Below the pieces are notes generated by a model. That model did not search any database. It was not told the DNA's origin and saw only the letters and a program-made list of their open reading frames with translations. Source: an uncultured Acidobacteriota bacterium (GTDB lineage Bacteria; Acidobacteriota; Polarisedimenticolia; Polarisedimenticolales; DASRJG01). Taken from it: a stretch of 61,470 nt of DNA. This document shows, one piece after another, positions 28,990-41,604 of the stretch. How positions within the stretch are numbered: position 1 is the stretch's first letter; the number at the start of each line of letters is the position of its first letter. The translations under genes were made by a program, and so were the position numbers. Location of the stretch: the NCBI GenBank assembly GCA_964628935.1, contig CAZVOE010000004.1, forward strand, positions 1 to 61,470. Reading direction: 5' to 3'.

Positions 28990-29243
28990 CGCGGCTCGTC
29001 GACCCCGTACCCACGCTCGATCTCGGCGAGCATCGTGCGGATGTCCGCCGTCGGGAAGTCGAGCTTCGAGGCCTCCCGGACGGCGGCCAACTTTCTCCCG
29101 CCGTCCTTCACGGGGCGCTGCCGGCGTGCCGACCGAATCGCTTCGCGTACCCACTCCGCGACCGTGAGGTTTCGGCGCTTCGCCAGTTGGCGGATCTCCG
29201 CGAGCTCGGTCTCCTCCATCAGAACTTGGAGCCTTTTACTCAT
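28986..29243 (-). CDS. vapB: ribbon-helix-helix-type antitoxin (VapB type)
   Basis: 85-aa ORF MSKRLQVLMEETELAEIRQLAKRRNLTVAEWVREAI. ATGA overlap with the PIN gene. Confidence 0.75.
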   Translation of the reverse strand: MSKRLQVLMEETELAEIRQLAKRRNLTVAEWVREAIRSARRQRPVKDGGRKLAAVREASKLDFPTADIRTMLAEIERGYGVDEPR

Positions 29244-29360
29244 GCTGTGAGTATGGCGCGGCTCCTCCAAGGAGTCAATCGCCCCGCGGGGACGAGGCTT
29301 CCCGCTCGCGATGTCGTATCTTCTAAACTTCCCGCAGGGCTTCGACCCGGGAGAACCGCC

Positions 29361-30158
29361 ATGGACTGGGGACTTACCAACCGACTTTCGCGCATCCTGA
29401 AGCCGGCCGACGGCCGGACCGTCATGCTCGCCGTCGACCACGGCTACTTTCTCGGGCCGACCTCCGGCCTCGAGAAGCCGGGGAAGGCGGTGGCTCCCCT
29501 CCTTCCGTACGCCGATTCGCTGATGCTGACCCGCGGCGTGCTGCGGCAGTGCATCCCCCCGACCTCCGACGTGCCGATCGTCCTCCGGGTCTCGGGAGGG
29601 ACGAGCATCCTCAGGGAGTTGTCGAACGAGGGGCTCACCGTCGATCTCGAGGACGCCGTTCGCCTGAACGCCGCGGCCGTGACCCTTTCGGTCTTCGTCG
29701 GAGCGGAAGGGGAACGGGAGACGCTCCTCAACCTCGCCAAGCTGATCGACTTCGGTCAGCGGTACGGGTTCCCGGTCCTCGCGGTGACCGCGGTCGGGAA
29801 GGACATGGTCCGCGACGCGCGCTATCTCGGCCTCGCGTGCCGGATCTGCGCCGAAATCGGCGCCCACTTCGTGAAGACCTACTACTGTGAGGACTTCGAG
29901 GAGGTGGTTGCGAACACTCCCGTCCCGGTCGTGATCGCGGGCGGCAAGAAGCTCCCCGAGCGCGACGCGATCGAACTCGCCTGGAAGGCGATTCGCGCCG
30001 GCGCCAAGGGGGTCGACATGGGACGGAACATCTTCCAGTCCGATTGCCCCGTGGGGATGATCCGCGCGGTGAGAGCGGTCGTCCACGACGGCGCGGAGGT
30101 CGAGGAGGCCTTCGAGCGGTACGCGAAGGAGAAGGAAGGCGCGCTCGCCCGGCGCTGA
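29361..30158 (+). CDS. DhnA/LsrF-type class I aldolase (closest in my memory to LsrF, 3-hydroxy-5-phosphonooxypentane-2,4-dione thiolase)
   Basis: MDWGLTNRLSRILKPADGRTVMLAVDHGYFLGPTSGLE, AVTAVGKDMVRDARY, HFVKTYY (Schiff-base Lys context), PVPVVIAGGKKLPER, GVDMGRNIFQS. Confidence 0.85.
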   Translation: MDWGLTNRLSRILKPADGRTVMLAVDHGYFLGPTSGLEKPGKAVAPLLPYADSLMLTRGVLRQCIPPTSDVPIVLRVSGGTSILRELSNEGLTVDLEDAVRLNAAAVTLSVFVGAEGERETLLNLAKLIDFGQRYGFPVLAVTAVGKDMVRDARYLGLACRICAEIGAHFVKTYYCEDFEEVVANTPVPVVIAGGKKLPERDAIELAWKAIRAGAKGVDMGRNIFQSDCPVGMIRAVRAVVHDGAEVEEAFERYAKEKEGALARR

Positions 30159-30183
30159 CGCGTCGCAGCCGGAGGGATCGCCG

Positions 30184-31209
30184 ATGCGGGCCGCCGTCTA
30201 CTACAACAACCGCGACATCCGGACCGAGGAGCGTCCCGTCCCGAAGGCGGGCCCCGGTGATCTGGTCGTCCGGATCGCCGCGAGCGGGATCTGCGGCTCC
30301 GACGTCATGGAGTGGTACCGCCTCCCCAAGGCCCCCCTCGTCCTCGGCCACGAGATCGCGGGCGAGGTCGTCGAGACCGGAGCGGGGGTCGCGCGCTTCG
30401 CGGTCGGCGACCGCGTGGTGGCGACCCACCATGTTCCCTGCAACACCTGCCGTCTCTGCATGGCGGGGCACCACCCGTACTGCGACACGTTGAGGACCAC
30501 TCACTTCGACCCGGGTGGGTTCTGCGAGTACGTTCGCCTCCCCGCGATCAACGTCGACCGTGGGACCTTCCGGATTCCCGACACCGTCTCGTACGAAGAG
30601 GCGACCTTCGTCGAGCCTCTCGCCTGTGTCCTACGCGGGCTGCGTGTGTCCCGCTTCCGAGCGACGCAGGACGTGGCCGTGCTCGGGAGCGGCATCTCGG
30701 GAGCGCTCTTCGTGCTCGCCCTGCGAGCCCTCGGGGCAGGAAAGATCCTCGCGACCGACGTGAATCCGTGGCGTCTTTCGAGGATTCGCGTGCTCGGGGC
30801 CGACGACGCGTTCGACGCGACGGGAGACGTCCCTGAGGCGATCCGGACTCGTCTCGGCGGGCGCGGCGCCGATCTCGTCATCGTGACGACCGCAGCCCTT
30901 CCCGCCGTCGCCCAGGCGCTCCGGAGCGCGGGACGAGGCGGGACGATTCTCTTCTTCGCGCCCGCCGAGCCGGGGACGACCTTCCCCTTCCCGCTCTTCG
31001 ACGTCTGGAAGGACGGCCTCTCGATCGTGCACTCCTACGCCGGTCCCCCCGCGGACATGGCGGCGGCTCTCGATCTGATCGCGGCGCGCCGCGTGGAGGT
31101 CGGCGCGACGATCACCCACCGGCTCCCGCTCGAGCGCACCGCCGAGGCGTTCGATCTCGTCGTGCGCGCGGGGGAGTCGCTCAAGGTGATCGTGGAGCCG
31201 GGGCGCTGA
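30184..31209 (+). CDS. Zn-dependent medium-chain alcohol/polyol dehydrogenase
   Basis: SGICGSDVMEW, LGHEIAGEVVETG, structural-Zn cysteines CNTCRLCMAGHHPYC, VAVLGSGISG. Confidence 0.9.
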   Translation: MRAAVYYNNRDIRTEERPVPKAGPGDLVVRIAASGICGSDVMEWYRLPKAPLVLGHEIAGEVVETGAGVARFAVGDRVVATHHVPCNTCRLCMAGHHPYCDTLRTTHFDPGGFCEYVRLPAINVDRGTFRIPDTVSYEEATFVEPLACVLRGLRVSRFRATQDVAVLGSGISGALFVLALRALGAGKILATDVNPWRLSRIRVLGADDAFDATGDVPEAIRTRLGGRGADLVIVTTAALPAVAQALRSAGRGGTILFFAPAEPGTTFPFPLFDVWKDGLSIVHSYAGPPADMAAALDLIAARRVEVGATITHRLPLERTAEAFDLVVRAGESLKVIVEPGR

Positions 31210-31938: not shown

Positions 31939-32537
31939 GCGTCGACGAATCGTCCGCTTCCGACCAACTCTCCCCGCGCCGCGGTGTAGTTCCGGATGGC
32001 GCACCGGAGGATGTGGAGGTGGTCCGGCGCGTCCGGAGCGGCGATGTCGAGTCCTTTGCGATCCTGGTGCGGCGTTACGAAAAGCCGGTCTACAACGCCG
32101 TGCGACGGATGGTCCGGGACCGGGATGACGCCCGCGACCTCGCGCAGAACGCGTTTCTCAAGGCATTCCGCGAACTCGACTCGTTCGACGAGCGCTACCG
32201 ATTCTTCTCCTGGCTCTACAGGATCGCCATCCACGAGTCGCTCAATCATCTCCGTGGGGGCGGGCGCTCGGAGCCCCTTCCGTTCGAACGGCGCGATCTC
32301 GGGCCTGGCCCGGAAGACCATGCGGCCGCCCGCCAACGATCGCGGCTCCTGGAGGACGCGTTGAACCGCCTGAGCGCGGACCACCGCGCCGTCATCCTTC
32401 TCCGCCACTTCGGGGAGTGCTCGTACGCGGAGATCGGGGACGCCCTGGGGATTCCCGAGAAAACGGTGCGTTCTCGACTTTTCGAGGCGCGGCGCTCCCT
32501 CCGTTCCATCCTTGTCGACCTTGGGGTGGTGCGATGA
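31935..32537 (+). CDS. ECF sigma-70 family factor
   Basis: Region 2: FAILVRRYEKPVYNAVRRMVRDRDDARDLAQNAFLKAF, FFSWLYRIAIHESLN. Region 4: ILLRHFGECSYAEIGDALGIPEKTVRSRLFEAR. ATGA overlap with the STAS gene. Confidence 0.9.
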   Translation: MSVDESSASDQLSPRRGVVPDGAPEDVEVVRRVRSGDVESFAILVRRYEKPVYNAVRRMVRDRDDARDLAQNAFLKAFRELDSFDERYRFFSWLYRIAIHESLNHLRGGGRSEPLPFERRDLGPGPEDHAAARQRSRLLEDALNRLSADHRAVILLRHFGECSYAEIGDALGIPEKTVRSRLFEARRSLRSILVDLGVVR

Positions 32538-33553
32538 TCGACCGGCAGGACGAGATCGACGGCATCCTGTCCCAACTTCCGGAGGAGGAGGTCCCCGAGG
32601 GGTTCGCGGCGGGGGTCATGGAGAAGGTGCGGATCGAAGTGATGAAAAGAGGCACCGACGGGTTCTCCGCCGGCGCTGTCGCCGAGGAGAGAGGCGGATT
32701 TCGAACGATCCAAGGGAGGGTTCGGGTCATGTCCAGCAAGTCCGATTCAACGAATGTCTGGCGTACCGTCTTCGCGACCGCGGCCGCCGTGGCGGTGATC
32801 GGGATCGGGGCGTACGTCCTCGGGTTCCGCCCGTCGGCCGAAGAGTCGGCGGGCACCGTGGGAGCGGCCCGGAAGCACCGTGCCGAGCAGATCCAGCCGA
32901 AGGACGTAGCGGTGGAGGGGATCGGTGGAGAGGCGTTCCTTCAGACGGAGATCTTCGACCGTCTGGTGAACGACCCCGCCGCCCGAGAGGCCCTTTCCAA
33001 CGACGCGTTCCGCGAGGCGTTGACGAACGACGCCTTCCGGCAGGCTCTCACGAGCGACGCGTTCCGCGCCGCCTTCTCGCAGGATGCGTTCCGCGCCGCG
33101 CTGACGAGCGACGCGTTCCGGGACGCGCTCCGGAGCCGAGCCTTCCGCGACGCGTTCACGAGCGACGCGTTCCGGGACGCGCTTCGGAACGAGGCCTTCC
33201 GCGACGCGCTCCGGTCCGACGCGCTTCGCGACGCCATGATCCAGGACGCCTTCCGCGCCGCCTTCGCGAACGAGGCCTTCCGCGAGGCGCTCAAGAGCCA
33301 GGCGTTCCGCGATGCGCTCACGAGCGACGCCTTCCGCGATGCGCTCACGAGCGACGCCTTCCGCGCCGCGCTTGCAAGTGACGCCTTCCGGTCGGCTTTC
33401 CTGAGCGACGCCTTCCGCGATGCGCTCGCGAGCGACGCCTTCCGGCAGGCTCTCACGAGCGACGCGTTCCGGGACGCTCTCCGGAGCGATGCCTTCCGAG
33501 ACGCTCTCCGGAGCGAAGCGTTCCGCGACGCCATGGCGCGGGGCGGCGACTGA
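32534..33553 (+). CDS. single-pass membrane protein co-translated with the ECF sigma (putative anti-sigma/sensor); its ectodomain is 20 tandem nonapeptide 'ALTSDAFRD' repeats
   Basis: ATGA overlap with the sigma gene. LPEEEVPEGFAAGVMEKV resembles the pre-TM segment of ECF anti-sigmas. TM helix WRTVFATAAAVAVIGIGAYVLGF. Residues 153-332 are a 9-aa repeat array. Confidence 0.8.
   Translation: MIDRQDEIDGILSQLPEEEVPEGFAAGVMEKVRIEVMKRGTDGFSAGAVAEERGGFRTIQGRVRVMSSKSDSTNVWRTVFATAAAVAVIGIGAYVLGFRPSAEESAGTVGAARKHRAEQIQPKDVAVEGIGGEAFLQTEIFDRLVNDPAAREALSNDAFREALTNDAFRQALTSDAFRAAFSQDAFRAALTSDAFRDALRSRAFRDAFTSDAFRDALRNEAFRDALRSDALRDAMIQDAFRAAFANEAFREALKSQAFRDALTSDAFRDALTSDAFRAALASDAFRSAFLSDAFRDALASDAFRQALTSDAFRDALRSDAFRDALRSEAFRDAMARGGD
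32990..33529 (+). repeat. 20 x 27-nt in-frame tandem repeat (consensus peptide A-L-T/R-S-D-A-F-R-D)
   Basis: Read directly from the sequence. Adjacent units 33311-33337 and 33338-33364 are identical 27-mers (gatgcgctcacgagcgacgccttccgc). A degenerate unit (RLVNDPAARE) precedes the array. Confidence 0.95.
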
Positions 33554-33586
33554 GCCGCTCCCGGGCCGGGACCCGATTCCGAGAGG

Positions 33587-33618
33587 AAGCCCCGCGCCCG
33601 CGGGGCTTTCCTTTTTTC
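33587..33618 (+). terminator. Rho-independent terminator after the repeat-protein gene
   Basis: AAGCCCCGCG-cc-CGCGGGGCTT stem followed by TCCTTTTTTC. Confidence 0.8.
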
Positions 33619-33646
33619 GGGCGGTGCGCGTACCTTTCCGCCCGAC

Positions 33647-36586
33647 GTGAAAACCCTAGCCCTCCCATCGGTCCTCGTTTTTTTTCTCGTCCTCCCATTC
33701 CCGGGACGCTCGGCGGAACTCGAGACCCTCAAGACCGACGACCTGCTGCTGGTCTACCGAGACCCCCTCCAGACCTTCCTGGCCCCCCATGCGGCGCGCT
33801 GCTTCGAGAACTCGATGGACTTCCAGAAGCGGGTGCTCGGCTGGAAGCCCTCGTCGCCGGTCACCGTCCTTCTGAACGACTACTCGGACGCGGGGAACGC
33901 GAGCGCCCTCGGCGTCCCGAGGAATCTCCTTCTCCTCGAAACTTCCCCCGTCGGGGTTAACTTCGAGACGGTCACGACGAACGAGCGCCTCAACTGGCTC
34001 TTCAACCACGAGCTCATCCACATCGCGACCGTCGATCGGGCGGCCGGGCGCGACCGGTTCTTTCGAAAGGCCTTTCTCGGGAAGGTCGCTCCCACCTCCG
34101 AGCACCCCGCGACGATCCTCTGGTTCTACCTGACCTCCCCCCGCGACGCGGCACCCCGCTGGTACCACGAAGGGATCGCCGTCTTCGCGGAGACCTGGAT
34201 GGCTGGGGGGGTCGGTCGCGCGCAGGGGGCTTGGGACGAGATGGTCTTTCGGGCGATGGTGCGGGACGGCGCGCGATTCTACGACCCGCTCGGCCTCGTC
34301 TCGGAGGGGACAAAGACCGACTTTCAGGTCGAGGTCAATTCCTATCTTTACGGCACGCGGTTCGTGACCTGGCTCGCGTACACCCGATCTCCCGCCCATC
34401 TCGTCCGGTGGGTCGCCCGGGAGGAGGGTTCGAAGGCCTACTACGCCGCTCGCTTCGAGGAAGTGTTCGGAAAGCCCCTCGACGCCGCTTGGGCCGACTG
34501 GATCGCGTGGGAGAAAGAATTCCAGACGCGGAACCTCGAGGCGATCCGGACCTACCCGGTCACGAAGGCGCGGGACGTTTCGGACCGGGCGCTCGGATCG
34601 GTCTCACGAGCGGCGTTCGACGCCGAGCGGCGACGGTTCTACGCCGCCTTCCACTACCCGGGCCAGGTCTCCTCCATCGGCTCGATCTCGCTGGAGGACG
34701 GACACGTCGAGCGGATCGTCGAGGTGAAGGACCCGGTCCTGTTCACGGTCACCTCTCTGGCCTGGGATTCGCTCCGGCGGAGAATCTTCTACACCGCGGA
34801 CAACCGCGAATACCGCGACCTTCGGGAGGTCGACCCGGAGACCGGGGAGTCGCGGACCCTCCTCAAGGATGCACGGATCGGCGACCTCGCCTTCGACCGG
34901 GCGACCGGCGACCTCTGGGGGATCCGGCACTTCAACGCGATCGCCTCCCTCGTCCGGATCCCGCCACCGTACGACAGCTGGGGCCTCGTGCGGTCGTGGC
35001 CGTACGGAGAGGTCCCCCGGGACCTCGACGTATCCGCCGACGGCTCGTTTGTCGCGGTCGCGGTCGGCGGCATCGACGGGCGCCACGTCCTGCGCGTCTA
35101 CTCCGTGGAAGACCTGCTTCGCGGCGACGCCTCCCCGGTCGCGGAAACCTCCTTCGGCGAGGCGGCCCCGCTGAACTTCGTCTTCTCCGGCGACGGCCGG
35201 TTTCTGTACGGAACCACGACCTACACAGGGGTCCCCAACGTTTTCCGCTGGGAATGGGACGCGAACCGCATCGAGGCGGTCACGAACGCCGTGTCCGGAT
35301 TTTTCCGTCCGCTTCCCCTCCCCGATGGCAACCTCCTGGTCTTCCGGTACACCGGTGAGGGGTTCATTCCCGCGATCGTTCGCCCGGAGCCGATCGACGA
35401 CATCGAGCCGATCGAATTCCTCGGGGCGAGGCTGATCGACAAGTTCCCGGAGCTCGCGGACTGGAACGTCGGCTCGCCCGCGGAGATCCCGCTCGAAGAG
35501 CGCACGCGCGGCACGGGGCCGTACCGCTCGGGCCGCAGCATCCGCGTCGAATCCCTCTACCCGATCCTCGAGGGGTACAAGGACAGCGCCGCCGCGGGTC
35601 TCCGCCTCAACCTCTCCGACCCGCTCCTGCTGAACCGGCTCGCCCTGGCGGCCTCGTACTCTCCCGACCGCGAACTCGCGTCGGACGAGCGGCTGCACGT
35701 CGACCTGCGCTACAGCCGTTACGACTGGCGCGCGAACGCGAAGTGGAACGACGCCGATTTCTACGACCTCTTCGGACCGACGAAGACGAGCCGCAAGGGG
35801 TACTCGTTCGGCGGGGGTTGGGGGCGCACGCTCCTGTACGATCGGCCCCGCACGGTGCGGCTCGACCTCGATGCCGCCTACCATGGCGATCTCGAGATCC
35901 TCCCCGACTACCAGAACATCGCTTCGCCCGTCTCCCGACTCCTCTCGTTCGAGGGGAAGCTCGAGTACGCGAACGTCCGGTCCTCCCTCGGCCACGTCGA
36001 CGAGGAAAAGGGGCACCGCGTCGAGGCGCTCGCCCTCGTCGACCGCGTGCCCGGCGAGACCTTCCCGAAGCTGCTCGTCTCGTACGACCAGGGGTTCCCA
36101 CTCCGCCTCGACCATTCCTCCGTCTGGCTCCGCACCGCGGCCGGGGTCGGGTCGGGAGGCCGGGAGAGCCCGCTGAGCCACTTCTACTTCGGCGGTTTCG
36201 GGAACAACTGGGTCGACCACGGAAACGAAAAGCGCTACCGCGAGCCTTGGAGCTTCCCAGGTCTCGAGATCAACGAGGTCGGGGGAAGGACCTTCGGCAA
36301 GCTGCTCCTCGAGTGGAACCTGCCGCCACTCCGGTTCCGCCGCCTCGGCTCTCCCGGCTTCCATGCAACGTGGCTCCGCACGTCGCTCTTCGCGACCGGC
36401 ATCGCCACCGACTTCGACGACGGGACGCTCCGCCGCGAAGTCGGAAACGTCGGGGTCCAAGTGGACGTCCGTTTCTCGGTCCTCTCGCGCCTGGAGATGA
36501 CCCTGTCCCTGGGCTACGCTTCCGCGTTCGAGCGGGGTTTCGGGCCGAAAGACGAGGTCATGGCTTCGCTCAAGGTCCTCCAGTGA
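33647..36586 (+). CDS. secreted multidomain protein: Peptidase_MA-like (HExxH) domain + beta-propeller region + C-terminal Omp85/surface-antigen-like beta-barrel; GTG start
   Basis: Signal peptide VKTLALPSVLVFFLVLPFPGRSA. NHELIHIA (34007-34021) with downstream WYHEGIAVFAETW (gluzincin-like third ligand). Propeller-like repeats (FYTADNREYRDLREVDPETGESRTLL, FLYGTTTYTGVPNVFRW). Barrel-like tail with alternating hydrophobics and SHFYFGGFGNNWVD. Confidence 0.75.
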   Translation: MKTLALPSVLVFFLVLPFPGRSAELETLKTDDLLLVYRDPLQTFLAPHAARCFENSMDFQKRVLGWKPSSPVTVLLNDYSDAGNASALGVPRNLLLLETSPVGVNFETVTTNERLNWLFNHELIHIATVDRAAGRDRFFRKAFLGKVAPTSEHPATILWFYLTSPRDAAPRWYHEGIAVFAETWMAGGVGRAQGAWDEMVFRAMVRDGARFYDPLGLVSEGTKTDFQVEVNSYLYGTRFVTWLAYTRSPAHLVRWVAREEGSKAYYAARFEEVFGKPLDAAWADWIAWEKEFQTRNLEAIRTYPVTKARDVSDRALGSVSRAAFDAERRRFYAAFHYPGQVSSIGSISLEDGHVERIVEVKDPVLFTVTSLAWDSLRRRIFYTADNREYRDLREVDPETGESRTLLKDARIGDLAFDRATGDLWGIRHFNAIASLVRIPPPYDSWGLVRSWPYGEVPRDLDVSADGSFVAVAVGGIDGRHVLRVYSVEDLLRGDASPVAETSFGEAAPLNFVFSGDGRFLYGTTTYTGVPNVFRWEWDANRIEAVTNAVSGFFRPLPLPDGNLLVFRYTGEGFIPAIVRPEPIDDIEPIEFLGARLIDKFPELADWNVGSPAEIPLEERTRGTGPYRSGRSIRVESLYPILEGYKDSAAAGLRLNLSDPLLLNRLALAASYSPDRELASDERLHVDLRYSRYDWRANAKWNDADFYDLFGPTKTSRKGYSFGGGWGRTLLYDRPRTVRLDLDAAYHGDLEILPDYQNIASPVSRLLSFEGKLEYANVRSSLGHVDEEKGHRVEALALVDRVPGETFPKLLVSYDQGFPLRLDHSSVWLRTAAGVGSGGRESPLSHFYFGGFGNNWVDHGNEKRYREPWSFPGLEINEVGGRTFGKLLLEWNLPPLRFRRLGSPGFHATWLRTSLFATGIATDFDDGTLRREVGNVGVQVDVRFSVLSRLEMTLSLGYASAFERGFGPKDEVMASLKVLQ

Positions 36587-37611
36587 CCGTCCTGCTCGAC
36601 GCCGCCGCGCGCGTCCTTCTCGGCTTCGTTCCCGTGCTCGGCCTTCTGGTGGCGCTCCGCGCCTTCGATGCCCACAAGCTCCTGCGCCTGCGGGACGTGG
36701 TCCGGACCCTCGCGTTGGGGGCGGCCTGTGCTCTCGTCGCGCTCCCGACGAACAAGGCGCTCGAGGAGATCCTCGGCTTCGAGACCCAGGCCGTGTCGCG
36801 CTACGTCGCCCCGCTCGTCGAGGAGGCTCTCAAGGCCGGCGTGCTCGTGTGGCTCATCCGCGGCCACCGGGTCGGGTTTCTCGTGGACGCGGGGATCCAC
36901 GGGTTCGCGGCGGGAGCCGGCTTCGCCCTCGCCGAGAACTTTCAGTTCTGGCTTTCGAGGCCCGACGCCGGCCTCGCGGTCTGGTTCGTTCGCGGGTGCG
37001 GCACGGCCGTGATGCACGCGGGAACCGGGGGGGTGATCGCCCTGGGGGCGAAGGCCGGATGGGATCGCGCGGTCGCGCCGCGGGCCGTCCACTGGGCGCC
37101 GGGTTTCGCGATCGCCGTGGCCCTCCACTCCGCCTTCAACCACTTCCCCGTCTCGCCGCTCCTATCGACGGCGGGGATCGCCGTCGTGGCGCCGCCGCTC
37201 GTCGCCGCGGTGTTCCAGCGCGCGGTGCGGGGGACGCAGCACCGGTTGCGCCGCGGCTTCGATGCCGACACGGAACTTCTCGGGTTGATTCTGACGGGCG
37301 CAATCTCGCATTCCCCCGTCGGCGAGTACCTCGCGAACCTGCGGGAGCGGTTTCGGCCGGAGGTCGTGGTCGATCTTCTCTGCTACCTCAGAATCCGTTT
37401 GGAACTCTCCCTTCACGTGAAGGGCCTCCTCCTCCTGAGGGAGGCAGGGTTCGATCCGGAGCCCGACCCCCAGATCGGGGCGAAACTCACCGAGCTCGAG
37501 TTCCTCGAGAAGAGCATCGGAGCGACGGGGCGGCTGGCGTTGGCTCCGTTTCTCCGAGGCGGACCCGAAGAGATCTGGCAGAACGGATTGCTCCGCGGCG
37601 GGGGGCGCTGA
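36583..37611 (+). CDS. PrsW-family intramembrane metalloprotease with ~110-aa cytoplasmic C-terminal extension; GTG start
   Basis: VEEALKAG, GFAAGAGFALAENF, GTAVMHAGTGG, LHSAFNH (PrsW signature boxes). GTGA overlap with the upstream gene. Confidence 0.85.
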   Translation: MTVLLDAAARVLLGFVPVLGLLVALRAFDAHKLLRLRDVVRTLALGAACALVALPTNKALEEILGFETQAVSRYVAPLVEEALKAGVLVWLIRGHRVGFLVDAGIHGFAAGAGFALAENFQFWLSRPDAGLAVWFVRGCGTAVMHAGTGGVIALGAKAGWDRAVAPRAVHWAPGFAIAVALHSAFNHFPVSPLLSTAGIAVVAPPLVAAVFQRAVRGTQHRLRRGFDADTELLGLILTGAISHSPVGEYLANLRERFRPEVVVDLLCYLRIRLELSLHVKGLLLLREAGFDPEPDPQIGAKLTELEFLEKSIGATGRLALAPFLRGGPEEIWQNGLLRGGGR

Positions 37612-37629: not shown

Positions 37630-40600
37630 TCAGGGTCCCTCGTTGCCGCACGAGTCGGCGGCGCGCACCACATAAAAGCGCGGGTTGAGGTTCCCCAGGT
37701 CGTCGCGGTCCTCGAACACCGTCTCCGACGTTTCCCCGATTCTCACCCACGACCCAGACGGTGCGCTGGCCCGGTAGATTCGGTAGGACGAGGCTCCGGC
37801 GGACGGGTCCCAGGTCAACCGGACGTGCGCGTCGTTGACGTTGTCGAGACGGACCGTCGACCCGAGCGGCGCAGGGGGCGCCTGGGAGGTCTCGTCGCGG
37901 GCCGAACGCCGGACGAGGTTGTCGTCGGTGACGCCACCGTTGTGCGGACCGGTCGAGCACGTCTCGTCGTTCTCCGCCCGGACGACGTAGTGGAGGGTGA
38001 CGTCGTTCGGGGCGCCGGAGTCGACCCAGCCGGTTCCCGTCAATCCCGCGGCAATGCGGTTCGCGGGTCCCGGCACGAACGCAGGGTCCGACGAGCGGTA
38101 GACCGCGTAGCTCCCGCCGCTTCCCGTTCCCCACGCGGGGGCGGGCGCCCAGGCGAGTGCGACCCCTCCGTCGGCGCAGCCGTCCGCGTCGCTCGCGGAG
38201 AGGAGACCTGCGAAAGACGGCGCTCCCGTACAGGCCCCGCACGCCGCGTAATCCGGCTCCGAGGCGCTCTTCAGGATCAAGCGGTCGACGTTCCACGACG
38301 AGCCGTGGGAGGTCGTTCCCGGCCCGGCGTTCAGCCGGAAGGCGATCTGCAGTTGGCCGTTCGCGTCGGCGTGCTGGGAGATGTCGATCGTCTGGAGCGA
38401 CCAGGCGGAATCCGCGACGCCGGGGATGCTGGGGCTCGTCCAGACTCCCTGCCAGACACCTCCCTTTCGCACCTCGACGTACGCGATCCCGGGGGGCGAG
38501 ACGTTGAGCCATCTCCGGAACTTCAACTGTCCTCCGGAGAGGGTCGAGGCGTCGATCACCGGACTGATGGCGCGGAGGCTCGTCCCCGGTTCGTAGTCCC
38601 CCGGATAGGCGCCGAGACCGGTGAGGTCCTGACCGAGGACTTTCGTTCCTTCGAACGCCCCACTCGGGTCGCCGGGCGTTCCGAGACCTTGCGGGGCGCC
38701 GATTTGCCAGTCGCCCTCGAGCGTCCACCCCGCGGCCGCTTCGAACGTCTCCCGGTACATACCGGGGATTCGCCATGCGTTCAACTGGAAGGGGTTCCCC
38801 GCCGCGTCGGCGCTCGCCGTGTTTCCGTGCGTGTCGGCGGAGGTGACCCGGAAGTGGATCCTGCCGCACTCGAGCATCGGCCCGATCGTGAGGGCGTGAC
38901 TCGTCTTGAGGACGGCGTCGGAGACGGTACTGCCGAGACCCGCGGTCGTTCCCCAATCGACACGCGAGGTCGCCGGTTCCGAAGTGGTCCAGCGAATGGT
39001 CGCCTTGTCGTCCTGAATGTCGGTGACGCGGACGTCGGAAATCGCCGGTCCGCCGCAATCGACATCCGCGGTCTCGAAGGAAGTCGCGGGCATGCCTCGA
39101 CCGTTGTCTTCGTCGTGGTAGGTGGCCGTGATCAGGTCGCCGTGGGCGACCTGTACGACGCCGTCCCCGCCGCCGGCGGGGGTCGATCCGGTCGGGACGC
39201 TTCCCGTGAACTGCGAGGTGTTGGGCCCGGTCTCGACCAGGATCGACGTCTCGGGGGAGGGTTCGGACGAGGACGAGACGTTCACCGCGACGGTGTCCGC
39301 CGCGGTCGGGTCCGTGTTCAGGTCGAGGTCGACGACCTTCACCTGGAGGCCGTCGGCGCAGGAGACGACCGTCTTCGGAAGGGACAGGAGTCCCGCGTGG
39401 CAGGGCTGGAGCCCTTCTCCGAAATCCCCCCACGTTTCGAACGAGTGATACTGACCGCCGTTCGTGTCCTCCGATACGTTCCCCGGCGCGTCGGCGCTCT
39501 CGACGCTGAACCAGTAGACCGTGCACGCGCGCAGACCGGTCAGGTTGACCGCGTGATCGGTCACGAGCCCGCCGGCGCCCGCGGTTAGATCCCGGGGCGG
39601 GCCCTCCCCCCCCCGAACCACCCAGCTCGAAACCTCGTCGGTGTTCCACCGAACGGTCGCGCGGACGTCGGTCACCGAATCGGTTCCGACACCGGAGATG
39701 ACCGGACCCTGGCAGTCGGCCGCAGCCGTGTCGGTCTTCGGAACGTTCGATCCGCCCTGGCCGTCGTCCGCGTCGAGGTAGCGGACCGTGATCGTGTCGG
39801 AGTGCGCGACCTGGACCTTCCCGTCGGACGCGACCGGGCCGCCGTCGGTCCGGACGGTTCCCTTGAACACGCCCGACGTCGCGGAGGTTTCCGTGAGCGT
39901 CACCGTCTCCGGAGCGCTCTCACGATTCGAGAACGCCTCGATCGCGACCGTCCCCGCGCCGCGGAGGTCGGCGTCGGTCAGGGTCACGCCGAGGGTTCCC
40001 GAGCAGGACGCCGAGGCCTCCTGGATCCGGATTCTGCCGTCGGGCGTGGCGGTGTTCGACACGGCCTCGTAGGCGTCGACGCGCCCCATGCCGTACGCGT
40101 TGTCGATGCCGGGGGCGCCGAGGTCGATCGCCGTGTCCATCAGGATCTGTTTGAGGTCGTCGTGGGTGAGCCCCGGGCTCGAAGAGACCATGAGCGCGAC
40201 CGTTCCCGCCACGTGCGGCGTCGCCATCGAGGTGCCGCTCTTGAACGAGTAGCCCGAGCAGACGTTGTGGCTCTTGGTGTCGACTCCCGGCGCCGAGACG
40301 TCCGGCTTGATCAAGCCGGGCGGGTACGGGTGGTCGTTCCAAGGCGGGACGTCCTCCCAGGTGACCGGCCCACGGGACGAAAAGCCCGCGATCTGGTCGC
40401 TGCAGTCGGTCGCTCCCACCGTGATCACGCGCGGGACGTCGCCGGGGGTGCGGACGTTGTCGGGCTCGTTCCCCGAACCCTCGTTCCCCGCCGCGATCAC
40501 CATCGCGGTCCCCGCCTCGATCGTGTTCTCGGCGTTCTGCCGCCAGGTGGCGCGGTCCGGGTTCTGGTCGTGCGGCCAGCCGAGGCTCATGGAGATCGCG

Positions 40601-41604
40601 TCGGCGCCGTTGTCTGCCGCGTACTGCATCGCGTTCCAGACATCGACCTCGTCGGCGAAAGTCACCCCGACCTTGACCGCCATGATCTTCGCGTCGGGGG
40701 CCATGCCGGCCTGTGTCCCCGCCGTGCCGTCCCCCGCGACCGTGCCGGCGCAGTGGGAGCCGTGCGAGTTGTCGTCGTTCGGGACGTTGTCGCCGTTGTC
40801 GAAGTCCCACCCGATCAAGTCGTCGACGAAGCCGTTGACGTCGTCGTCGATCCCGTTCATGTCGTCGGGGTCCATCACGGCGCCGTCCGCGTCGAGATCC
40901 TCGCCGGGGTTGACCCACATCTGGTTCGCGATGTCGGTGTGGGTGTGGCAGACCCCGGTGTCGATCACCGCGACGACCGCTCCCTCGCCGGTGACGCCGA
41001 GCTCGTTCCAGACCTCGGGCGCGCGCATCACGCCCACGCCGCACTCGATCTCGGCGATCGCGTCTCGCGGCGCCGGGTCGACGAAGAGCCGCGGGGCCGG
41101 CGGGGGAGCGAGGTCTTCCCGTTCGCTCCGGTCGCCGAGGAGGACGTCGACCTTCGGGTTATGGTTGATCCAGGCAACCTCCGGGCGTGCGGCGAGTTCG
41201 CGGATCACGGCCGGAGTGGCGTCGACGCCGATGACGTTTCCGATCCAAAGAGGGCGGATGCGTGCGACCTCGCCGGTCCGCTCGAGCTGCCCGAGACGCG
41301 CGAGGATCGCGGCTTGTGTCCGCGCGGCATGCGCGCGCAGCAGATCGCAAACCACACGCCGTCCTTCGCTTCGCCCGAGCCCCTGTCTCGCGATCCGAAG
41401 CCGTTCCACGGGAACGCGGTCCGACAGCACGATGCTCACCGGGACGAGCCGGTCGTCCGGGGACTCCGCGAGGACCTCCTCGAGCGGAGGACGGAGCCGC
41501 GGTGAGACGGGGTCGTCCCCCGCGTGACCGGGCAGGAAGGGGACCGCCAAGAGTCCGATCGCGACGAGGAGCGTCCGGAACGGGAACGGTCGAGAGGCGC
41601 CCAT
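37630..41604 (-). CDS. 1324-aa secreted S8 subtilisin-like peptidase with propeptide, internally duplicated Ig-like+Fn3-like modules, a MAM/LamG-like jelly-roll and two terminal Fn3-like domains
   Basis: Signal peptide. VVAVIDTGV (Asp), NSHGSHCAGTVAG (His), SGTSMATPHVAGTVALM (Ser). VRWNTDEVSS and IRWTTSEPATSRVDWG (PAP-N/Fn3-like). ETFEAAAGWTLEGDWQIGAP (jelly-roll). SYRIYRAS...FYVVRAADSCGNEGP at the C-terminus. Confidence 0.9.
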   Translation of the reverse strand: MGASRPFPFRTLLVAIGLLAVPFLPGHAGDDPVSPRLRPPLEEVLAESPDDRLVPVSIVLSDRVPVERLRIARQGLGRSEGRRVVCDLLRAHAARTQAAILARLGQLERTGEVARIRPLWIGNVIGVDATPAVIRELAARPEVAWINHNPKVDVLLGDRSEREDLAPPPAPRLFVDPAPRDAIAEIECGVGVMRAPEVWNELGVTGEGAVVAVIDTGVCHTHTDIANQMWVNPGEDLDADGAVMDPDDMNGIDDDVNGFVDDLIGWDFDNGDNVPNDDNSHGSHCAGTVAGDGTAGTQAGMAPDAKIMAVKVGVTFADEVDVWNAMQYAADNGADAISMSLGWPHDQNPDRATWRQNAENTIEAGTAMVIAAGNEGSGNEPDNVRTPGDVPRVITVGATDCSDQIAGFSSRGPVTWEDVPPWNDHPYPPGLIKPDVSAPGVDTKSHNVCSGYSFKSGTSMATPHVAGTVALMVSSSPGLTHDDLKQILMDTAIDLGAPGIDNAYGMGRVDAYEAVSNTATPDGRIRIQEASASCSGTLGVTLTDADLRGAGTVAIEAFSNRESAPETVTLTETSATSGVFKGTVRTDGGPVASDGKVQVAHSDTITVRYLDADDGQGGSNVPKTDTAAADCQGPVISGVGTDSVTDVRATVRWNTDEVSSWVVRGGEGPPRDLTAGAGGLVTDHAVNLTGLRACTVYWFSVESADAPGNVSEDTNGGQYHSFETWGDFGEGLQPCHAGLLSLPKTVVSCADGLQVKVVDLDLNTDPTAADTVAVNVSSSSEPSPETSILVETGPNTSQFTGSVPTGSTPAGGGDGVVQVAHGDLITATYHDEDNGRGMPATSFETADVDCGGPAISDVRVTDIQDDKATIRWTTSEPATSRVDWGTTAGLGSTVSDAVLKTSHALTIGPMLECGRIHFRVTSADTHGNTASADAAGNPFQLNAWRIPGMYRETFEAAAGWTLEGDWQIGAPQGLGTPGDPSGAFEGTKVLGQDLTGLGAYPGDYEPGTSLRAISPVIDASTLSGGQLKFRRWLNVSPPGIAYVEVRKGGVWQGVWTSPSIPGVADSAWSLQTIDISQHADANGQLQIAFRLNAGPGTTSHGSSWNVDRLILKSASEPDYAACGACTGAPSFAGLLSASDADGCADGGVALAWAPAPAWGTGSGGSYAVYRSSDPAFVPGPANRIAAGLTGTGWVDSGAPNDVTLHYVVRAENDETCSTGPHNGGVTDDNLVRRSARDETSQAPPAPLGSTVRLDNVNDAHVRLTWDPSAGASSYRIYRASAPSGSWVRIGETSETVFEDRDDLGNLNPRFYVVRAADSCGNEGP

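Follow-up and report, generated by a model that had tools for sequence, protein, structure and literature searches.

The window analysed here is a 61,470-nucleotide (nt) stretch of DNA from an uncultured bacterium of the Acidobacteriota (Polarisedimenticolia; assembly GCA_964628935.1, contig CAZVOE010000004.1, positions 1 to 61,470). Between 31212 and 37611 it carries six closely spaced genes, all on the + strand, in a region with a G+C content of approximately 69%. They encode an RsbW-like HATPase, a STAS-domain protein, a sigma factor of the extracytoplasmic function (ECF) type, a single-pass membrane protein with a repetitive ectodomain, a 979-amino acid (aa) secreted protein predicted to reside in the outer membrane, and an intramembrane protease of the PrsW family (Table 1). 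An original prediction, made from the sequence of the window, had proposed that the last two proteins form a pair functionally linked to the sigma factor and the repeat protein. Every sequence feature listed in that prediction was found at the coordinates given. The proposed link is strongly supported by a gene order that is kept across phyla when tested in both directions, and by a common ECF-type promoter.

Table 1. Genes, regulatory elements and protein domains of the cassette in the window.
Feature	Position	Strand	Evidence
RsbW-like anti-sigma kinase (HATPase_c_2), 143 aa	31212..31643	+	Pfam PF13581 2.7e-22
STAS-domain protein (RsbV-like anti-anti-sigma), 96 aa	31648..31938	+	Pfam STAS_2 4.8e-15, STAS 5.2e-11
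ECF-type promoter P1, CAACTC-N14-TGTA	31965..31988	+	family consensus CCAACTT-N14-TGTA
ECF sigma factor (probable start)	32013..32537	+	Pfam Sigma70_r2 1.6e-16, r4_2 4.8e-16, also Sigma70_ECF
Single-pass membrane repeat protein, 339 aa	32534..33553	+	translation; 27-nt tandem repeat
Terminator-like hairpin + T6	33585..33618	+	11 pairs, 8 of them G-C
Second hairpin	33617..33645	+	RNA fold; 2 nt short of the GTG start of the 979-aa protein
979-aa secreted, predicted outer-membrane protein	33647..36586	+	ORF; homologue alignment; AlphaFold2
Predicted gluzincin domain (alpha/beta)	residues 24-300, nt 33716-34546	+	AlphaFold2
HELIH	residues 121-125, nt 34007-34021	+	translation
EGIAVFAE	residues 175-182; E175 = nt 34169-34171	+	translation
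Predicted six-bladed TolB-like propeller	residues 308-578, nt 34568-35380	+	AlphaFold2
Predicted 16-strand barrel	residues 633-977, nt 35543-36577	+	AlphaFold2; strands mostly pLDDT 80-96
PrsW-family intramembrane protease, 342 aa	36583..37611	+	Pfam PF13367 3e-14

The open reading frame (ORF) of the 979-aa protein starts at GTG 33647, and the N-terminus resembles a signal peptide (residues 1-23). AlphaFold2, supplied with 50 homologues, modelled the full-length protein with a predicted local distance difference test score (pLDDT) of 85 and a predicted template modelling score (pTM) of 0.83. The HELIH and EGIAVFAE motifs, the propeller and the barrel tail that had been read from this sequence are all in place, and they fall into the three domains of the model. 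Structure prediction, which had been suggested as a check, thus returns both the zincin fold and the barrel.

When the N-terminal domain was modelled alone (pLDDT 72), all of the top 50 structure matches in the PDB were of the gluzincin type, comprising M1, M9, M61 and M30 proteins and one M1-like TFIID chain. The matches have E-values of 6e-5 to 1.2e-3 and template modelling scores (TM-scores) of 0.42-0.53, and include IRAP, ERAP1, APN, LTA4H and the peptidase domain of M9 collagenase. Across 79 sequences drawn from several phyla, residues H121, E122, H125 and E175 never vary; E175 is located in WYHEGIAVF, the counterpart of the third-ligand motif NEGFA of M1 enzymes. On the basis of the fold match together with these invariant residues, the domain is very probably an active metalloprotease. 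The GxMEN exopeptidase motif is not found in the 979-aa sequence, and an invariant D81-x-G83-N84-A85 motif lies 38 residues before H121.

A Foldseek search with the full-length model gave a match list filled by propellers, from TolB and WD40 proteins. The C-terminal barrel is predicted to be 16-stranded with an Omp85-like layout: most of its strands show alternating hydrophobic residues, and a long loop between strands 11 and 12 (residues 836-881) occupies the position of Omp85 loop 6. Within this loop G849, N853, N854, Y864, R865, P871 and G872 are invariant, and the canonical VRGY is absent. No POTRA domain was matched in the window protein or in 50 relatives, and residues 580-632, between propeller and barrel, are modelled as three short helices and one strand. 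The protein ends in Gln, which had left the barrel assignment tentative in the original prediction; this doubt is eased by the family alignment, in which the C-terminus reads SLK[IV]L, with or without one extra residue.

Family models gave a mixed answer to the suggested search for Peptidase_MA_2, PD40 and Omp85 domains. Pfam and NCBIfam scans of the 979-aa protein itself returned no match even at E = 10 (Pfam Peptidase_MA_2, M1, Bac_surface_Ag and Omp85_2 included), but weak Pfam matches were obtained among the 50 relatives, to PD40 in 38, Omp85_2 in 28 (best 2.2e-4), BSP in 13 and Peptidase_MA_2 in 5 (best 3.9e-5). A precomputed PF19143 match exists for two relatives. Sequence searches of the PDB, made both with the single protein and with a 50-sequence profile, produced weak propeller matches only. 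The family is nonetheless large: more than 4,400 relatives are present in a protein collection clustered at 90%, with approximately 50% identity across phyla. Named relatives, at 56-60% full-length identity, are labelled 'hypothetical', 'WD40 repeat' or 'TolB family'. A profile search of representatives at 50% identity found 4,238 proteins at E <= 0.001, and the complete ones are nearly all 960-1,014 aa in length.

The stop codon of the 979-aa protein (TGA 36584-36586) overlaps the GTG start of prsW at 36583 as GTGA, as had been noted. The product matches Pfam PF13367 over residues 39-209 with 53.4 bits (cut-off 23.5), which confirms the family assignment. In 70 sequences E80, E81, K84, F114, E118, N119, H182 and N186 are invariant and H145 is conserved in at least 95%, such that the motifs EE..K, F...EN, H and H...N are all kept. 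From these comparisons the window PrsW is a member of the family; by its NCBIfam equivalog score, given below, it is not an orthologue of Bacillus PrsW. The subfamily also has a conserved cytoplasmic C-terminal domain of approximately 130 aa (residues ~210-342, window 37210-37608) with the motifs GFDxDxELL, VVADMLCYLRIHLEL and SIGxTGRLA. This domain has no Pfam family match; an input from the cytoplasm, such as one delivered by the STAS protein, could act through it.

When a single genome per species was scanned, relatives of the 979-aa protein turned out to be encoded in at least 589 stretches, from which 80 loci (L001-L080) were kept for analysis. These come from Acidobacteriota (Vicinamibacteria, Thermoanaerobaculia and Polarisedimenticolia), Gammaproteobacteria (Woeseiaceae and Steroidobacteraceae), Eisenbacteria, Zixibacteria, KSB1, Ignavibacteria and others. 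The ORFs of each locus were searched with hidden Markov models built from the proteins of the window, and the denominators given below count loci with enough sequence on the side concerned. PrsW is encoded immediately downstream of the 979-aa protein and on the same strand in 62/72 loci, and anywhere in the locus in 67/72. Directly upstream, again on the same strand, the repeat gene is present in 55 of 60 loci. For the 44 loci whose upstream sequence exceeds 4.5 kb, a search of the 5 kb upstream found the repeat protein in 41, STAS in 39, the ECF sigma factor in 36 and the HATPase in 26. The reverse test, starting from an alignment of the PrsW subfamily and using metagenome contigs, showed a homologue of the 979-aa protein ending just upstream of PrsW in 61/67 cases. 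The pair is therefore rarely found without sigma or anti-sigma neighbours; its occurrence without them had been named as grounds for refuting the proposal, which this check does not do.

A gene for an FHA-GAF-SpoIIE (PP2C) phosphatase lies approximately 4.6 kb upstream of the gene for the 979-aa protein in 22 loci (for example L008 5571-7712, on the - strand), so that an RsbU/RsbW/RsbV-like partner switch is complete beside the cassette in these. No homologue of this phosphatase was found in the window by tblastn.

The nearest solved structures to the ECF sigma factor are 6in7_B (deposited as sigma-H factor), SigW and RpoE, with E-values of 5e-25 to 2e-22; 6in7_B we take to be Pseudomonas AlgU. 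The anti-sigma factors of AlgU, SigW and RpoE are single-pass proteins that are removed by stepwise regulated proteolysis. The first codon of the sigma ORF in the window is ATG 31935, which overlaps the STAS stop codon. As the conserved promoter at 31965-31988, followed by GGAGG, sits inside this longer ORF, the true start is probably GTG 32013 or 32019, giving a sigma factor of approximately 172-174 aa.

The promoter motif CCAACTT-N14-TGTA is common to divergent STAS-sigma intergenic regions. It is of the AAC-N16-(C/T)GTA type and resembles the sigma-W consensus, TGAAAC-N16-CGTA. The exact pattern CAACYY-N13-15-TGTA has 61 matches in the 1.23 Mb of the loci, against approximately 8 chance matches estimated from base composition. 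About 52 of the 61 sit at two fixed places on the coding strand, before the sigma gene (P1) and before the repeat gene (P2). With a relaxed pattern, P1 is found within 120 nt upstream of the sigma gene in 40/45 loci. P2 lies directly upstream of the repeat gene in approximately 26/39 split cassettes, that is, those with a separate anti-sigma gene. In the window there is a single match, between the STAS stop and GGAGG, where 0.06 would be expected by chance. No promoter motif common to the regions upstream of the HATPase gene was found.

The hairpin with its T6 run behind the repeat gene had been interpreted as a terminator (33587-33618) closing the sigma operon. Hairpin and T-run are indeed present, but they do not isolate the gene pair that follows. 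The distance from the T-run to the start codon of the 979-aa protein is 28 nt, and no such promoter motif occurs between the hairpin and this codon, from which it follows that the 979-aa protein and PrsW are transcribed by read-through. The hairpin is kept in the close relative L022, and a hairpin with a T-run recurs in 29/68 cassettes. Taken together with the dependence on read-through, this comparison suggests that the hairpin is probably an attenuator, setting the 979-aa protein and PrsW below the level of the repeat protein. The second hairpin (CGGGCGG...CCGCCCG), partly conserved in L022, could mask the translation start region of the 979-aa protein. A 76-nt stretch with both hairpins folds at -40.8 kcal/mol (z = -4.0), and 0/200 shuffles were as stable.

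The repeat protein of the window has a transmembrane helix at residues ~76-98, followed by a conserved juxtamembrane segment with GTVG at residues 107-110 (nt 32852-32863) and then by nonapeptide repeats of the type xSDAFRDAL. Tandem Repeats Finder reports a unit of 27 nt (9 aa) in 19.7 copies; this period rules out an 8-residue unit, and a Pfam DUF826 match, in which no single stretch is significant, was discounted as a repeat artefact. The repeat array (33001-33531 in the window) evolves fast across L001-L080 and the juxtamembrane segment stays fixed. In most lineages the unit has 9 aa, with SDAFRDAL-type, SNEAFRQAL, KSPELQAAL, ASPGVAAAL and ADENFSMLA variants; the Eisenbacteria-like L055 and L065 have an 11-aa unit, LPDADGGRRxK. 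Several assemblies contain runs of N within the array. The ectodomains range from 210 to 443 aa, and the array is thus unsupported as a fixed-length ruler of the periplasm.

Two arrangements of the repeat protein and the anti-sigma function were found. In split cassettes the sigma and repeat genes have a further gene between them, whose product of 260-290 aa combines an anti-sigma-like N-domain, one transmembrane helix and a periplasmic beta-domain of approximately 130 aa. These anti-sigma candidates are full-length, occupy the expected position and have weak matches to RseA_N, DUF3379 and zf-HC2. The split form occurs in Gammaproteobacteria, Eisenbacteria, Zixibacteria, KSB1, Ignavibacteria and some Acidobacteriota, and the repeat protein there has a cytoplasmic tail of only 10-25 aa. 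In Vicinamibacteria, a single ORF joins a full anti-sigma-like N-domain to the transmembrane helix, the juxtamembrane segment and the repeats. The fused form is also seen in the window and in L022, its relative at 89% identity, but with the N-domain shortened to ~32 aa. The repeat protein had been put forward as the partner of the ECF sigma factor; this agrees with the fused anti-sigma-like domain of some lineages but not with the separate anti-sigma gene of most.

A GT(M/I/V)(A/G) motif located just outside the membrane is common to the repeat protein and the separate anti-sigma factor of the same cassettes. The pattern G-[TS]-[MILV]-[AGS...] is found 7-28 residues past the transmembrane helix in 50/58 repeat proteins and 20/30 separate anti-sigma factors, compared with a background for the GT-type motif of 2.8% per 44-residue window; most of the other anti-sigma factors have near-variants. 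In the Steroidobacteraceae loci L068, L076 and L077, where no PrsW is adjacent, both proteins read GS instead of GT. This joint replacement points to a single partner that recognises the motif in both proteins. The GT motif is the leading candidate for the site at which a protease would recognise or cleave them.

The best-supported reading of these observations is that of a sigma module in which control is by proteolysis and the outer-membrane partner is new. That the 979-aa protein and PrsW act within it as a dedicated protease pair, in a conserved envelope-to-sigma signalling cassette, is a proposal we advance tentatively, as its probability falls a little short of even. In the mechanism we propose, the barrel would anchor the zincin and the propeller at the periplasmic face of the outer membrane; a barrel of 16 strands has its two ends on the periplasmic side. 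The zincin would attack the distal ectodomains of the single-pass proteins, PrsW would then cut these proteins near the GT motif in a site-1 manner, and a site-2 protease encoded elsewhere would finish the anti-sigma factor and free the sigma factor. The sequence of events would thus run from the outer-membrane zincin to PrsW, then to the repeat protein and to sigma release, an order that we infer. The freed sigma factor would raise its own level and those of the repeat protein, the 979-aa protein and PrsW, with the hairpin holding the last two under the level of the repeat protein. In the window the anti-sigma factor and the repeat protein would be merged into one ORF, and the STAS/RsbW pair may supply a second, cytoplasmic input. 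The repeat protein may serve as sensor arm, bait or decoy.

A fuller version of this scheme is doubtful. It describes a hitherto unrecognised trans-envelope proteolytic switch in which an Omp85-anchored gluzincin at the outer membrane and PrsW at the inner membrane would act on two paralogous, GT-tagged single-pass proteins, namely the anti-sigma factor and a sigma-induced repeat protein that, as bait or decoy, would set the threshold and feedback of an RpoE/SigW-like sigma factor. The STAS partner switch would act as a second, cytoplasmic input, and the switch would be widespread in two-membrane bacteria of soil and sediment.

Several observations weigh against the signalling proposal. The N-domain of the repeat protein in the window is anti-sigma-like but reduced to ~32 aa (MIDRQDEIDG...LPEEEVPEGFAAGVMEKV), and its sole family match is a weak one to an NCBIfam anti-sigma model, with an E-value of 0.042. 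With a cytoplasmic tail of 10-25 aa, the repeat protein cannot itself hold the sigma factor in most lineages. It would therefore be the partner of the sigma factor in some lineages only, its ability to hold sigma in the window is doubtful, and the STAS/RsbW pair may matter more there. The putative assignment of PrsW as the site-1 protease is drawn from gene linkage and the shared juxtamembrane motif, and the match of the window PrsW to the equivalog model for Bacillus PrsW (NCBIfam NF033739) reaches 18.8 bits at a cut-off of 225. No site-2 protease is encoded within the cassette, and the zincin could face either the periplasm or the cell surface. Three Steroidobacteraceae loci have the repeat gene and the 979-aa protein without PrsW, and one locus has the 979-aa protein alone. 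Lastly, a sigma-type promoter precedes the repeat gene, the gene for the 979-aa protein and prsW, which could therefore be outputs of the sigma factor and not its regulators.

This last point leads to an alternative that we consider unlikely but serious, in which the 979-aa protein is an effector of an RpoE-like stress sigma factor. It would be an Omp85-family assembly or quality-control machine equipped with a protease of its own and a TolB/BamB-like propeller, in the manner of BamA together with BepA, that degrades or handles misassembled outer-membrane proteins, and PrsW alone would deal with the anti-sigma factor. The kinship of the sigma factor with the 6in7_B sigma, RpoE and SigW agrees with such a role, as does the lack of an own promoter for the 979-aa protein and prsW, which are placed behind a sigma-type promoter. 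Omp85 proteins generally assemble outer-membrane proteins, and a role like that of BamA-BamB has been proposed for WD40-Omp85 proteins (PMC4104836). However, ordinary regulon members are not kept beside one regulator in 85-90% of loci, in both directions and across phyla, often with overlapping codons. No POTRA domain was detected in the 979-aa protein, and the equally conserved repeat protein, with the motif it shares with the anti-sigma factor, would be left unexplained.

The abundance expected for the repeat protein raises a different alternative. As its gene is the first behind P2 and precedes the attenuating hairpin, the protein is probably produced in larger amounts than the 979-aa protein and PrsW, and it could be a cargo that PrsW frees near the GT motif. 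The Omp85-type barrel would pass or anchor this cargo at the outer membrane in two-partner or type Vd style, trimming by the zincin would turn it into surface material or into nonapeptide-repeat fragments that are released, and the sigma factor would only switch the system on. A quickly varying repeat unit and array length beside a fixed juxtamembrane segment would suit a cargo of this kind. There is precedent in the TpsB and PlpD-type Omp85 proteins, which export partner or passenger domains (PMC4104836), and a role as peptidases that release exported proteins has been proposed for PrsW domains (PMC3482391). Nevertheless, the anti-sigma factor bears the same GT motif, and in Vicinamibacteria and the window the fusion of an anti-sigma-type N-domain to the repeat ectodomain ties cleavage to sigma control and not just to export. 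Neither a two-partner secretion (TPS) domain nor POTRA was found, and we regard processing and export as quite improbable, though a serious rival. The position behind a sigma-type promoter fits signalling, stress output and export alike; signalling is favoured because the anti-sigma domain is fused to the repeat ectodomain and because the motif is common to the anti-sigma factor. It is extremely improbable that the 979-aa, prsW and sigma genes are adjacent through a local accident of the window genome. A strong hairpin terminator does separate the two gene groups in the window, and a few loci are without one or more partners. Against an accident, the gene order is kept in species-representative genomes of Acidobacteriota, Gammaproteobacteria, Eisenbacteria, Zixibacteria, KSB1 and Ignavibacteria, it is kept in the independent set of metagenome contigs too, and the promoter motif is common to the genes.

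The proposed signalling cassette can be compared with three known kinds of system. It shares with the Bacillus subtilis sigma-W system (RsiW, PrsW as site-1 and RasP as site-2 protease) a SigW-related ECF sigma factor, a single-pass anti-sigma factor whose N-terminus is intracellular, a protease of the PrsW family that keeps the conserved residues, and a promoter of the AAC-N16-(C/T)GTA type. Unlike in Bacillus, the cassette belongs to a host with two membranes, and its prsW is in physical linkage with the sigma genes. The PrsW of the cassette has an extra cytoplasmic domain of ~130 aa, and the cassette adds an obligate outer-membrane partner made up of zincin, propeller and barrel, a further single-pass protein with repeats, and STAS/RsbW genes.

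A functional likeness only exists with FecA/FecR/FecI (Prc, RseP), in which an outer-membrane barrel, a single-pass regulator spanning the periplasm and an ECF sigma factor are likewise encoded together and activation occurs through stepwise proteolysis of the anti-sigma factor. In contrast to FecA, the barrel of the cassette is Omp85-type and not a TonB-dependent transducer, and there is no FecR domain; no match to the corresponding Pfam families was found among the cassette proteins of the window. The outer-membrane component of the cassette bears the protease, and the linked inner-membrane protease is PrsW. With respect to RpoE/RseA/RseB/DegS/RseP and AlgU/MucA/MucB/AlgW, the cassette sigma factor is about as near to RpoE and the 6in7_B sigma as to SigW. 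These systems also have a second periplasmic protein encoded after the anti-sigma factor and a sigma factor that regulates its own operon. The cassette differs from them in being without a DegS/AlgW-type PDZ serine protease and without an RseB/MucB homologue, so that the site-1 cut would fall to PrsW, and the added partner is an outer-membrane metalloprotease.

The N-domain of the 979-aa protein has in common with M1 and Peptidase_MA_2 gluzincins the HExxH motif, a third-ligand Glu in (N/H)EG and a thermolysin-like fold. Unlike in M1 enzymes, the spacing from HExxH to the Glu is 49 residues, not 18, and unlike in either group a propeller and a membrane barrel follow it in the same polypeptide.

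The architecture of the 979-aa protein, as opposed to the cassette, may already be on record, with no function attached. In 2014 Heinz and Lithgow catalogued a WD40-Omp85 subfamily that has a TolB-like propeller and no POTRA, and suggested a BamA-BamB-like role for it; Omp85 subfamilies lacking POTRA are known (PMC4104836). The WD40-Omp85 subfamily was summarised later as having 'WD40 and peptidase domains' (PMC11358297). Like the 979-aa protein, it places an Omp85-type barrel behind a TolB-like propeller, a likeness of architecture that may reflect membership of the same family. The catalogue covers architecture only and does not describe the gluzincin active site, the pairing with PrsW, the sigma cassette, the promoter or the shared motif. 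Work from Aravind's group considered PrsW domains as release or signalling peptidases and does not describe the cassette (PMC3482391). PrsW and STAS are both absent from the main text of the ECF reclassification paper, and full-text literature searches found no description of a PrsW-Omp85-ECF cassette. The remark that the arrangement had not been seen described agrees with these searches as far as the cassette is concerned; a combination of an Omp85 barrel with WD40 and peptidase domains had been catalogued (PMC4104836, as summarised in PMC11358297).

Among bacterial routes of envelope sensing, proteolytic control of ECF sigma factors is a central one. To our knowledge, PrsW has been studied only in one-membrane bacteria, and TonB-dependent signalling is the only well-known route with its origin at an outer-membrane barrel. 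The cassette would offer a third design, an Omp85-type barrel that bears its own metalloprotease and is paired with PrsW. What is new here, within a known kind of sigma control, is the undescribed outer-membrane protease partner and its broad distribution. The phyla concerned dominate soils and sediments and have few studied regulators, with thousands of metagenomic proteins involved, and the cassette gives a first functional context to a family of ~980 aa that matches no family model. It also supplies testable parts in the form of a promoter consensus, the catalytic residues of two proteases and a short candidate recognition motif.

The genes that flank the cassette in the window are rarely found beside it elsewhere. 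Directly upstream (29187-31209) are genes for a DeoC/LacD-family aldolase and a zinc alcohol dehydrogenase, the stop codon of the latter being 2 nt before the HATPase start; these are kept beside the cassette in 1-2/80 loci. Downstream, a gene on the - strand (37630-41604) converges on prsW, with the two stop codons 18 nt apart, and encodes an S8 subtilase of 1,324 aa with fn3-like regions. It was seen in just 1/80 loci and is not part of the cassette. Among the analysed loci, the contigs of L028 and L038, which carry this cassette of two-membrane type, are filed under Bifidobacteriaceae or Bifidobacterium breve metagenome-assembled genomes, most likely through a binning error in the records.

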